Program-made: the position numbers and the translations under genes
The notes under the pieces: generated by a model
Seen by the model: the letters and a program-made list of their open reading frames with translations, nothing else
What the model was told of the DNA's origin: nothing
Databases searched by the model: none
From: a virus
Reading direction: 5' to 3' (one strand)
DNA length: 64,000 nucleotides
IMG/VR virus record: IMGVR_UViG_3300036770_002724
Span: 75,037-139,036 of that record
Part shown: in pieces, positions 548 to 63,546 of the stretch
How the letters are laid out: every line of letters begins with the position of its first letter
Position numbering within the stretch: position 1 is the stretch's first letter

Positions 548-612
548 AACGACAGACGCTTCCCGAATTCCCACGGGGGTCTCGCTTTTTGTTCAATGCA
601 CTCAATCAAGTG

Positions 613-948
613 ATGAGCACCCTACGTTCCAAGCTGATCCGACTGGCTCGCCAGCAGCCTACCCTTCGCCCGCACTTGCTGCCCCTACTGAGGGAGGCTT
701 CTTCTATGGATGATGATCTGGAGTTGTCGGTCTATGAACTCTTTCCCCGCCCCGAGACTGCTAGGGCTGAAGCTGAGATCCGAAAAGAAATCGACGACGC
801 CGTCATGGCTACCGTCAAATCCTACAAGAACATCGAAAAACTGATTAAAAAGTACAGCCACCTGGGCACGGAAGACACCGAGTCTCGGAAGCTGATCTGG
901 GACGACTGGGAAATCTCTATGGAGAAGGCCCTTCGCGGAAAGATGTGA
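613..948 (+). CDS. Hypothetical protein with shared N-terminal leader (putative internal virion protein)
   Basis: Starts MSTLRSKLIRLARQQPTLRPHLLPLLREA, near-identical to the leader of the next gene. Confidence 0.7.
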   Translation: MSTLRSKLIRLARQQPTLRPHLLPLLREASSMDDDLELSVYELFPRPETARAEAEIRKEIDDAVMATVKSYKNIEKLIKKYSHLGTEDTESRKLIWDDWEISMEKALRGKM

Positions 949-1074
949 CGGACGCTTCCCACACGGGTTTGCGGGAGAGGGTTCGACCGTGGGTATTCTA
1001 CGTTCCAAGCTGATTCGACTGGCTCACCAGCAGCCTCATCTGCGGCCCGATCTGTTGCCCCTACTGAGGGAAGC
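622..1074 (+). repeat. 77-bp direct repeat (622-698 and 998-1074) encoding the leader peptide
   Basis: Manual alignment: 64/77 nt and 23/26 aa identical. Confidence 0.9.
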
Positions 1075-1630
1075 GGGATTTGCCAGGCGCGCGGTGGATA
1101 CCACCTATGAGACGAAGCTGCTTCCTCCTGTCCTCAAGACCGTATTGGGCGGTCTAGGCTTCCGGAAGCGTCTGGTCAACGTGAGGGTGAGCACCCAGTA
1201 TTCGATGGCTTCTCCAGGTAACGAGGGCAGCCGGGGTTTCTTCGGTATGGTCAGCTTGAATCCTCCCAAGCTGGTCGGGTCCATCCAGTACGGTAACTGG
1301 GGCGGAGGCGGCTTGGGTAAGCCTTCCCCTGTGGACACGGATACGACCTCCCGTTCTCTTGCTGATGGGATGGTCGTGGTCCAGGGTCAAACCGGGGGCT
1401 ACGTTTACGTCAATCTCGTGATGACCCCGGAGACCTTTGAGTTCATCCAACAGGATCCCCGGATGCCCCGGAAGCCCCAAAAGAGCCTTCTGCCGGTCTA
1501 TGTCCTGAAGAATCACAATGGGGTCGAGCTGGCCCGGCATACGGACATCCGAAAGCTCACGGATGAGATGTTGCGCTACGAGATGCAGACCGGAAATCCG
1601 ACCCGAATCGAGATTCTTCAGGACTCGTAA
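989..1630 (+). CDS. Hypothetical protein with shared N-terminal leader (putative internal virion protein)
   Basis: Starts MGILRSKLIRLAHQQPHLRPDLLPLLREA; body unrelated to the previous gene. Confidence 0.75.
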   Translation: MGILRSKLIRLAHQQPHLRPDLLPLLREAGFARRAVDTTYETKLLPPVLKTVLGGLGFRKRLVNVRVSTQYSMASPGNEGSRGFFGMVSLNPPKLVGSIQYGNWGGGGLGKPSPVDTDTTSRSLADGMVVVQGQTGGYVYVNLVMTPETFEFIQQDPRMPRKPQKSLLPVYVLKNHNGVELARHTDIRKLTDEMLRYEMQTGNPTRIEILQDS

Positions 1631-1638
1631 GCCGTAGG

Positions 1639-2007
1639 TCAAGTCTCTTCCTTTGGTTTGATCGGGGGGCAGCACCCCGTCTCAGTCCACCACCAGTCCA
1701 CGACCTCCAGATCGAGCTTATCCCAGATCCACTCGGGAAGCTCGGGCAGCGAGTCGTAGGCGAACCACTCCTCGCCTCCTCTCGTCCGTCCGCGTCGCAG
1801 TCGCTCGTGGAGCATCCCCTCCAGGTGCCCTTGATCCTTGAGCACCAGGATGATTCTTAGCTTGTAGGGGCTTCCCGTCTGAAGCTGCTTGAGGCGACGC
1901 TCCGGATCCCTCGACCGACCGATCTTCACGGCCCCCGTCGTATGGCTCTGGATGAGGTAGAGGTGAACCCCGGGTGTCGGGTTCTGTGGGGGGCTGGTGT
2001 ATCGCAA
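1639..2007 (-). CDS. T5orf172/MUG113-family (GIY-YIG-like) nuclease domain protein
   Basis: YLIQS...VKIGRSRDPERRLKQLQTGSP...EGMLHERL...EWF pattern. Confidence 0.85.
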   Translation of the reverse strand: MRYTSPPQNPTPGVHLYLIQSHTTGAVKIGRSRDPERRLKQLQTGSPYKLRIILVLKDQGHLEGMLHERLRRGRTRGGEEWFAYDSLPELPEWIWDKLDLEVVDWWWTETGCCPPIKPKEET

Positions 2008-2082: not shown

Positions 2083-2361
2083 ATGACAAGGCTTCAACTC
2101 GTCAAGCTGGCAAGGCAGAGGGGCATCAAGGGGGCGTCGAAGATGCGAGTCGACGAACTCAAGTACCATCTGTCCGATAACGGGGTGTTGCCCCAGATCC
2201 CCGAAGAGGATACGGTAGTGGAGGACGAAACGCCTCGTCCTCCTGAGATCACGATTCGACTGAACACTCCGATGTTCCGGCACCGTCCTGTCCTGATGGC
2301 GTTCGCGGAGCTTGTCATCGCCCTCAAGGAAGCCGAGGAACTGGGCATCATCGAGACATGA
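2083..2361 (+). CDS. Rho N-terminal-like (HeH) domain protein
   Basis: TRLQLVKLARQRGIKGASKMRVDELKYHL matches the Rho_N pattern. Confidence 0.65.
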   Translation: MTRLQLVKLARQRGIKGASKMRVDELKYHLSDNGVLPQIPEEDTVVEDETPRPPEITIRLNTPMFRHRPVLMAFAELVIALKEAEELGIIET

Positions 2362-3029
2362 AGGACAAGCACATTCGGGTTCGGATTGAGCAGTGCCTTC
2401 TGCTGGCCAAGGCGTCGAATTGCCCTCGCAGGTCTTTCGGTGCCCTTCTGCTCGACCCCGAGCGTAACGTCGTTCTCGCGGACGGCTACAACGGTGCTCC
2501 CCGTGGAGGAGGGTCTCTCTGCGGGGGGCACCGTTGTCTTCGCGACGGGCTCGCTCCCGATCAGGTCGAGATCCGTTCTTTCGGAGACCAATGCGCCGTC
2601 CACATTCGTTCGGGACAATCTTGGGAGTCTGCCCTCTATCCAGACGGGCGGGTCTTGGGGTCTCCCGATCAAGCAGATGCCTTGAAGGCCCGGCTCCTCA
2701 AAGAAAACCTCCCCGTCGCTTCGGGGACGCGCGTCGAGATCGGGTGCGTCCACGCCGAAATGAACGTCATCTGTAACGCGGCGGCGGGCGGGGTAAAGTC
2801 AGCAGGGGCTTGGTTGATCGTGACCGGCGAGCCCTGCCTCCAATGCGCCAAGCTCGTCCATCACGCGGGAATCGTCCACGTCATCGTGGTCGCGGGCGGG
2901 TACGCCGGGGCGAATGGACTGGAGTATCTGCGGGAGCACAAGGTTCGAGTGACCGAGGTGGACGGTCCGCAGGATCCCCGGCTTGGGAAGGCGGTTCAGT
3001 CTGGTATGTGTACGTCCTCCAGTCTTTAG
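2358..3029 (+). CDS. dCMP/cytidine deaminase family protein with internal insertion
   Basis: SNCPRR, GYNGAPRG, HAEMN and PCLQC zinc motifs. Confidence 0.9.
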   Translation: MKDKHIRVRIEQCLLLAKASNCPRRSFGALLLDPERNVVLADGYNGAPRGGGSLCGGHRCLRDGLAPDQVEIRSFGDQCAVHIRSGQSWESALYPDGRVLGSPDQADALKARLLKENLPVASGTRVEIGCVHAEMNVICNAAAGGVKSAGAWLIVTGEPCLQCAKLVHHAGIVHVIVVAGGYAGANGLEYLREHKVRVTEVDGPQDPRLGKAVQSGMCTSSSL

Positions 3030-63132: not shown

Positions 63133-63546
63133 TCACTGATAGCTATAGGGCGGCGGAGCGTAGCCCAGAGCGACCGCCGCCGCAAGGAAGGCCCGACGGT
63201 GCTCGTCGGCCTGCGCGGTTCGCAGGGGAAGCCCCCGGGAGCGCGCCTTCCTGCTGACCCCCTCCCAGTACTCCATGCGGTCGAGGAGGTGGTCATACAC
63301 CATCTCGCGCTCCAGGCCGGAGAGGTCGTCCCAGAGACGGGACTTGGAGGGGCTCACCGGCAGCGTGAACCCGAGCTTCACCGCCGCAGCGGCGCCGCAG
63401 CCGTTGTTGAACACCGGGCCGGTGTAGGAGGTCAGGACCTCCTCCACCACCTTCCGGTGATCCTTCGCAACATCCTCCCAAGCCGGGAGGGTCATGGTCA
63501 TGGTCGTGCTCATGGTCGTGCTCATGGTCGTGCTCATGGTCTTCAC
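63133..63546 (-). CDS. Hypothetical protein with MSTT-repeat N-terminus
   Basis: 12-bp tandem repeat x3 at 63499-63534. Confidence 0.65.
   Translation of the reverse strand: MKTMSTTMSTTMSTTMTMTLPAWEDVAKDHRKVVEEVLTSYTGPVFNNGCGAAAAVKLGFTLPVSPSKSRLWDDLSGLEREMVYDHLLDRMEYWEGVSRKARSRGLPLRTAQADEHRRAFLAAAVALGYAPPPYSYQ

Follow-up and report, generated by a model that had tools for sequence, protein, structure and literature searches.

A portable 26-residue tag on unrelated proteins of uncultured huge phages as a candidate docking signal

Introduction

Two adjacent genes of a viral sequence, here called H and I, open with almost the same 26 residues and then diverge completely, which raises the question of what a short peptide is for that is kept while the proteins behind it differ. 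The DNA analysed (the window) comprises 64,000 nucleotides, bases 75037-139036 of a single 139,036-bp viral record (IMG/VR IMGVR_UViG_3300036770_002724; 60% G+C), and window positions are genome positions minus 75036. Judged by the CheckV estimates of related contigs, the record probably represents about a third of a huge-phage genome of ~0.45-0.5 Mb. The original prediction had read the leader of the two genes as a portable N-terminal signal, selected as a peptide, that loads diverse cargo into the phage head and is removed by the prohead protease in the manner of phage T4.

Results

A common tag on two otherwise unrelated genes

The tag copies of H and I (Table 1) are identical at 23 of 26 residues and 64 of 78 nucleotides. 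Both read LRSKLIRLA...LLPLLREA, with differences only at positions 10 (R/H), 14 (T/H) and 18 (H/D). Eight codon differences are synonymous, rather than the seven first claimed, and three are non-synonymous, as first counted. The flanks of the tag are unrelated (21 of 90 nucleotides identical per side) and the best 26-residue comparison of the two bodies gives 7 identities, in full agreement with the description of a shared leader followed by divergence. A 13-nt element, ACRGACGCTTCCC, occurs twice in the 139-kb record, once ahead of H and once ahead of I; it may be a leftover of the copied cassette or a regulatory site.

Neither protein has a family match in Pfam, PHROGs or NCBIfam. The AF2 model of protein H (mean pLDDT 84; helices 4-14, 16-43, 47-80 and 89-110) was computed from a 77-sequence alignment that covers the tag only, and Foldseek found no match for it in the PDB. 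Protein H has a tagged orthologue in the related contig G005, 45% identical across the full length, and the body of protein I shares 39% identity over residues 2-151 with a tagged 380-aa ORF situated ~5.5 kb downstream of the major capsid gene of the related contig G001. Word-based homologue searches returned one near-identical fragment for H and, with residues 1-40 of protein I, no match. The genes 3′ of the pair, one with a T5orf172/MUG113 domain and the other for a dCMP deaminase, indicate that the window runs on into a nucleotide-metabolism region.

Table 1. Coordinates of the tandem pair, the tag carriers and the head module (window, 64,000-nt stretch; genome, 139,036-bp record)
Feature	Position	Strand	Description or basis
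Gene H	window 613-948	+	ORF; 111-aa all-helical protein, N-terminal tag
Gene I	window 989-1630	+	ORF; 213-aa protein, GTG start, N-terminal tag
Tag copy 1 (gene H)	window 622-699	+	26 aa directly after Met-Ser-Thr; HMM 59.8 bits
Tag copy 2 (gene I)	window 998-1075	+	26 aa directly after Met(GTG)-Gly-Ile; HMM 60.7 bits
13-nt element ACRGACGCTTCCC	window 552-564	+	5′ of gene H
13-nt element ACRGACGCTTCCC, second copy	window 948-960	+	before gene I
T5orf172/MUG113-domain gene	window 1639-2007	-	downstream of H/I pair
dCMP deaminase gene	window 2358-3029	+	downstream of H/I pair
Tag carrier, 138-aa ORF	genome 24511		
Tag carrier, 118-aa ORF	genome 63337		
Tag carrier, 261-aa ORF	genome 68464	-	
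Tag carrier, 314-aa HExxH protein	genome 68556-69500		tag at extreme C-terminus
Tag carrier, 272-aa ORF	genome 70497	-	
Tag carrier, 190-aa ORF	genome 71079	-	
Tag carrier, RNA ligase			Pfam PF09414, E 2e-27; tag between ligase domain and 53-aa tail
Large terminase	genome 33146-35014		
Portal	genome 35660-37351		
1,425-aa protein adjoining portal gene	genome 38494-42771 (L003:11494-15768)		eukaryotic-type topoisomerase IB core PF01028, E 1e-28
Protease-like protein, 913 aa, intein-interrupted	genome 44539-47280 (L004:539-3277)		gene position, weak phrog_18299 match
Acidic scaffold-like protein	genome 47287-49203		gene position, composition, orthology
Inserted 80-aa Cys-containing module	genome 47842-48111 (L004:3842-4111)		residues 193-272 of scaffold-like protein
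Major capsid protein, 290 aa	genome 50139-51011		phrog_2522, E 2e-48
679-aa ORF directly 3′ of capsid gene	genome 51083-53122 (L004:7083-9119)		LAGLIDADG homing-endonuclease and DNA-methyltransferase PHROG matches
Weak connector match	genome 65571-66524		
[RK][IV]A[SA]R[YW]L sites	genome 24194-24511, 27469-28443, 28517-29164, 43933-44529, 56798-57184 (loci L002-L004, upstream of window); L001:9420-9460		

Nine copies in the record, selected as peptide

A profile HMM made from the two leaders and rebuilt once from its own matches was run against the six-frame translation of the whole record. It detected nine copies (E 2e-11 to 2e-16; next match at E > 1), seven of them upstream of the window, at 24.5 kb and at 63-72 kb, where genes were called by crude ORF picking. 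The motif therefore extends well beyond the tandem pair, to which its restriction had been named as the finding that would speak against the original prediction. Each of the nine carriers has a single tag and none of their bodies resembles another; in seven the tag begins 2-3 residues past the initiator.

Residues L1, R2, R7, L8, A9, R16, L20, P21 and L22 are invariant across the nine copies, and each of them is encoded by 2-5 different codons. Selection thus acts on the peptide and not on the DNA, as had been supposed from the pair. The upstream regions of the nine tagged genes contain no common promoter that would date their expression.

Distribution beyond this genome

Five related contigs (G001-G005), the longest of 485 kb, each contain 10-15 copies of the motif LRSKxIRLAxxxPELRxxLLPLLK, scattered genome-wide. 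A profile of the nine copies, searched against 1.84 billion representatives of clusters at 50% identity, retrieved 3,671 proteins at E<=1e-3 and 486 at E<=1e-10. The ten matches looked up are unnamed metagenomic proteins, and the top matches carry 2-7 tags separated by K/E/D-rich low-complexity linkers.

A degenerate DNA pattern of the motif was found in 98 stretches of IMG/VR, on contigs of up to 485 kb, and in at least 120 stretches of metagenome contigs; 596 Gb of prokaryote genomes gave 9 stretches only. These nine comprise four loci with clear copies (two of them short MAG contigs), two weak partial matches and three stretches without an HMM match. Among GenBank phages the motif is present only in the unannotated 485-kb LR745208.1, at 11 places. 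The tag is essentially phage-specific. It has no match in Pfam, PHROGs or NCBIfam, a sequence-profile search of the PDB gave chance matches to designed proteins only, the ESM Atlas returned nothing usable, and no relevant paper came up in literature searches on the motif strings or on huge-phage targeting peptides.

The strong conservation of the tag is paralleled by that of the 290-aa major capsid protein: of the 22 tag-bearing contigs tested, 13 encode it at 84-90% identity, and G001 (485 kb, 92% complete) belongs to these.

Anatomy and position of the tag

The tag comprises 24-26 residues and is basic and amphipathic, with three invariant Arg, one or two Lys and an invariant LAxxxP...LPL core. 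In the AF2 model of protein H it folds as helix 4-14 and a second helix that begins at residue 16, with residue 15 as the kink between them, at block mean pLDDT values of 82 (residues 1-10), 96 (11-20) and 89 (21-30). A natural 115-aa protein of G004 has one tag per end, and a single-sequence AF2 run shows it as two separate helix-kink-helix units (pLDDT 80-89) joined by a low-confidence linker (pTM 0.26). The model fits tags that would behave as independent hairpins on a flexible tether.

Placement was counted for 311 unique copies from viral and metagenome loci. A Met within five residues upstream is found for 222 (71%), the tag ends the protein in 22 (7%), 10 belong to mini-ORFs and 57 (18%) are internal or unclear in position; some tagged proteins are multi-copy, with 2-7 tags. 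The description as a strictly N-terminal leader is not supported by these counts. Glutamate at the P1 position of a T4-type L-x-E site is present in three of the nine copies of this genome, which end LL(R/K)EA, and in 75 of 304 unique copies elsewhere (25%), with K, T, Q, A and R also common. Because of these low proportions, T4-type (L/I)-x-E is not a conserved feature of the tag, and the cleavage after L-R-E that had been proposed from the pair is not borne out. A and E are only slightly over-represented in the segment behind the tag.

What the tag is attached to

When the tag was masked in 137 tagged proteins (9 from the record, 128 from related loci), BLAST resolved them into 91 clusters, 67 of them singletons. 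Portability, anticipated from two genes, is hereby established on a broad range of unrelated proteins. Pfam matches among 127 tagged proteins are ART-PolyVal (five), DUF2958 (three) and RelA_SpoT (two), together with one each of 2H-SAK, Zeta_toxin, pentapeptide repeats, DUF5710, DUF7007, DUF7717, DUF7919 and DUF3990. In the ART-PolyVal member examined, the tag covers residues 5-30 and the ART domain starts at ~46; the other four members of the cluster have the tag N-terminal too (residues 3-30). In a 1,238-aa protein of G004, ParB-like (DGHHR) modules alternate with several tags. ART, RelA/SpoT, 2H, zincin peptidase (MPTase) and ParB-like nuclease domains are hubs of the polyvalent proteins, which are known or predicted to be packaged in virions (PMC5512222), and effector domains of this list are present on tagged proteins as ART-PolyVal (five), RelA_SpoT (two), 2H-SAK, ParB-like DGHHR and HExxH.

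Gain or loss of the tag on conserved enzymes is evident from two comparisons with G001, whose orthologues end where the tag-bearing extension begins. The RNA ligase of G001 (52% identical) stops exactly ahead of the tag position, and its HExxH protein (48% identical) is without the C-terminal extension that bears the tag here. In the latter extension Met-Ser-Asp immediately precedes the tag, and the whole looks as though the beginning of a tagged gene had been captured. In place of the C-terminal tag and tail, the RNA ligase of G001 (L132, G001:246445-250092) has an HNH-like extension at its N-terminus.

Further short motifs were noticed on tagged proteins. EW(K/A)xxxxxxHxxxHPGAxxxDHT(I/V) recurs behind several tags (L118:3184-6900, L156:1908-2729) and also opens the 1,238-aa ParB-like protein of G004. 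The distant multi-tag proteins P0004, P0012, P0018, P0053 and P0075 share CEKLPxGPMRxNC, GEVPEAFKxQW and FDPxEI...PYMKGxFT, a commonality that suggests that further portable peptides circulate among other uncultured phages. All three are absent from this genome and nearly so from the related viral loci, which contain one PYMKG-type match. A related-locus search with the scaffold-like multi-tag protein P0006/P0151 found none in viral or metagenome contigs.

Tagged genes and the head module

The head module of the record lies upstream of the window (Table 1). Its protease-like protein matches phrog_18299, 'head maturation protease', weakly (E 4e-6), and Pfam assigns no protease family to it. The intein in this protein is recognized by Hint and LAGLIDADG Pfam matches, which the 474-aa G001 counterpart lacks. 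The multidomain topoisomerase IB protein adjoining the portal gene has the look of a polyvalent protein.

In this record one tagged gene (at 63337) lies within the same-strand late/head block and five more follow directly after the block. A tagged gene stands between the scaffold-like and major capsid genes in G001/L223 and L192, between a head gene and the protease in L181, and ~2 kb downstream of the capsid gene in L185, L140, L218/L209 and G003; in L155 and L156 tagged genes flank a connector homologue on both sides. In four of six contigs (G000, G002, G004, G005), 12-33 kb separate the capsid gene from the closest tagged gene. We consider the neighbourhood as moderate support for a link to the head, since the association with head genes is not universal and the loci examined had been chosen because they carry tags.

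A second short portable motif, [RK][IV]A[SA]R[YW]L, occurs at or near the termini of several head-module proteins, with five matches to a regular expression defined post hoc, compared with 0.03 expected from shuffles. A variant outside the expression, RIASRYA, is placed ~20 residues upstream of the C-terminal tag in the HExxH protein, and KVAARYL ends a protein of G004 (L118:6910-7884).

A tagged module inside the scaffold-like protein

The scaffold-like protein is orthologous in its N- and C-terminal regions (E 1e-38 and 5e-10) to a G001 protein whose gene lies between those of the protease-like and major capsid proteins. Inserted into it here is the 80-aa module of Table 1 ('domain X'), with the motif MLAGRTWG...PPAGxNGS...YNxWFRxNVCP..CG. 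The same module is found immediately behind the tag in four small proteins (L135, L162, L210, L212), at the C-terminus of large proteins behind the tag (L144, G002:44637-44924) and without a tag in L175 and L180. It offers a Rosetta-stone-type link of the tag to the scaffold, the latter being assigned only by its place in the gene order, its composition and its orthology. Such a module, integral to the scaffold-like protein of one phage but tagged in the proteins of others, would be expected if the tag delivers proteins to the scaffold's site. As a universal receptor of the tag, the module was considered and rejected: it is missing from the 92%-complete G001, which has 11 tags.

Discussion

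Based on the collective evidence, the tag is understood as a portable docking element by which unrelated phage proteins would bind one common partner, a reading that we place at a probability of roughly 0.8. It is suggested by the combination of portability, selection on the peptide, restriction to phages, independent folding, attachment to ~90 or more different bodies, and gain or loss in orthologues, which together point to a docking or targeting function towards a partner that is itself conserved.

As to the identity of that partner, we tentatively favour the assembling procapsid, a proposal to which we give somewhat less than even odds. It is favoured because the cargo types are those of proteins known or predicted to travel in virions, because tagged genes are situated among head genes and because of the scaffold module link. 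The scenario would be as follows. A clade of huge phages of ~0.45-0.5 Mb puts the tag on many unrelated accessory proteins, all of which would bind one conserved phage partner, namely the scaffold/core or the inner shell face of the procapsid. The tagged enzymes (ADP-ribosyltransferases, RelA/SpoT-type, 2H and zeta-type proteins, the RNA ligase and the HExxH protein) would thereby become encapsidated and be delivered with the DNA to the next host. Proteins with several tags on charged disordered linkers might serve as multivalent glue, and new cargo would be acquired when the short cassette recombines or becomes fused. Removal of the tag is left out of the model because no conserved cleavage site is evident. 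Capsid targeting and ejection of the tagged proteins, as originally predicted, are plausible on this basis.

The common partner could alternatively be a hub other than the capsid, such as a replication or transcription factory, a DNA-end/pilot complex, a chaperone or a conserved host protein, with the enzymes acting only in the producing cell. Position independence and multi-copy forms would suit a generic docking motif, tagged genes are spread over the whole 485-kb genome of G001, many cargo domains target nucleic acids or nucleotides, and the repertoire would equally suit effectors working inside the infected cell and never packaged. However, no candidate hub was found, the cargo corresponds to domains for which packaging is known or predicted, and tagged genes recur in head modules, with one tagged module fused to the scaffold-like protein here. 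We judge a non-capsid hub unlikely.

Association of the tags with one another was also considered. Hairpins of different proteins could bundle, so that multi-tag proteins form a condensate or network with the single-tag proteins as clients, in or out of the head. The amphipathic character of the hairpin is consistent with such a sticker, as are the 2-7 tags on K/E/D-rich linkers in the top database matches and, within the clade, the 115-aa protein tagged at each end and the 1,238-aa protein with several tags. Yet all nine carriers of the record are single-tagged, and the AF2 model of the two-tag protein, with its two independent hairpins and pTM of 0.26, shows no confident tag-tag packing, although the argument from the model is weak because it was a single-sequence run. 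On balance, the homotypic reading appears improbable.

The docking tag invites comparison above all with the capsid-targeting sequences (CTS) of T4, the closest precedent and the source of the original prediction. These are 10-20-residue N-terminal propeptides on diverse defence proteins (PMC3012670, PMC5694885), which may have only the targeting sequence in common (PMC3012670). The CTS of the internal proteins IPI-III and of Alt is, like the present tag, a short portable peptide common to unrelated, fast-evolving anti-host proteins (PMC3012670, PMC5512222), and Alt, the prototype of an ART with a capsid-targeting sequence (PMC5512222), shows the same architecture of N-terminal tag and ADP-ribosyltransferase as the tagged ART here. 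A strict T4-type propeptide, N-terminal and cut by the prohead protease after (L/I)-x-E, would agree with the ~71% of copies directly behind the start Met, with the three copies here that end LL(R/K)EA and with a protease-like gene in the head module. It is difficult to reconcile with P1 glutamate in only a quarter of the 304 copies and with the extreme C-terminal and internal copies, which cannot be N-terminal propeptides. The tag, at 24-26 residues, is moreover longer and far more conserved than the T4 sequences, to which it has no sequence relation, and it lacks their conserved cleavage site. To our knowledge, no T4-type targeting sequence occurs at the C-terminus, internally or in multiple copies, as the tag does. 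The strict form of the T4 analogy is accordingly seen as distinctly improbable.

Still less credit is given to a basic, helix-turn-helix-like element that tethers enzymes to phage DNA or RNA. The three invariant Arg with one or two Lys might serve such a purpose, and the RNA ligase and ParB-like cargo domains act on nucleic acids. Against this, the tag has no similarity to DNA-binding families in Pfam, NCBIfam or PDB sequences, conservation of its hydrophobic core equals that of the Arg residues, as is usual for protein-protein interfaces, and ART, zeta toxin and pentapeptide cargos need no tethering to DNA. A solenoid repeat unit (LRV or HEAT-like), suggested by the similar unit length of ~24 aa and by one of 88 multi-copy proteins matching Pfam LRV and LRV_2, is largely refuted by the single-copy, terminal architecture of most proteins, as multiple copies lie 30-300 residues apart on low-complexity linkers and not in tandem, none of 127 tagged proteins matches LRV or HEAT models, and AF2 shows isolated hairpins.

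With docking to a common partner as the preferred reading, other known systems delineate what the tag resembles. In the giant phage SPN3US, the head paralogues gp53 and gp54 have identical N-terminal 15 residues and are otherwise diverged, which was interpreted as a targeting propeptide (PMC5694885). Those proteins are paralogues cut at AxE/SxE (PMC5694885), whereas the tag sits on unrelated bodies and has no conserved cleavage motif. Polyvalent proteins use the same effector vocabulary as the tagged cargo and are predicted to enter the host with the DNA (PMC5512222). In each of them two to fifteen effector domains are joined in a single chain, frequently together with MuF (PMC5512222), in contrast to the separate effectors with a common tag found here, which may be thought of as an 'unbundled' solution. 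The tagged proteins examined individually have at most one recognizable domain, with the exception of the 1,238-aa G004 protein and its two ParB-like modules.

In length, position tolerance, multiple copies, conservation and the lack of a conserved cleavage site, the tag would by analogy be closer to the cargo peptides of cellular compartments than to T4. Encapsulin cargo-loading peptides and the encapsulation peptides of microcompartments are short, sit on flexible linkers at the N- or C-terminus or between domains, and bind the shell interior; the encapsulin shell has the HK97 fold. The tag is likewise short, linked flexibly, at either terminus or interdomain, and found on unrelated cargo. 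CsoS2, a multivalent disordered organizer with repeated motifs, offers a possible counterpart of the multi-tag proteins. Encapsulins and microcompartments are, however, cellular structures of unrelated sequence, and binding of the tag to a shell is putative. The C-terminal coat-binding domain of the P22 scaffolding protein, a small basic helix-turn-helix, attaches that protein inside the procapsid; it belongs to one scaffolding protein, as opposed to the many cargos of the tag, and has no sequence match to it.

Lastly, the finding has importance for how half-megabase phages might equip their heads. We entertain, with a little more reserve than the procapsid assignment itself, that this clade loads its heads with a changing arsenal of 10-15 separate effector enzymes by means of one encapsidation peptide, universal and independent of position, with multi-tag disordered proteins as an internal matrix. 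It would constitute a second, sequence-unrelated and mechanistically different solution to the problem solved by T4. Even with a partner other than the capsid, the tag is a very widespread mini-domain (3,671 cluster representatives) outside the curated libraries searched. Should it serve as a label for encapsidation or docking, one profile search is enough to list the injected or co-localized effectors of a whole uncultured clade, and hundreds of proteins in ~90 or more families, mostly without a function so far, become candidates for counter-defence and host takeover. If it is an encapsidation label specifically, it would provide a compact 26-residue handle for the loading of foreign proteins into large capsids, and viruses would be seen to use an encapsulin-like, position-independent cargo peptide.
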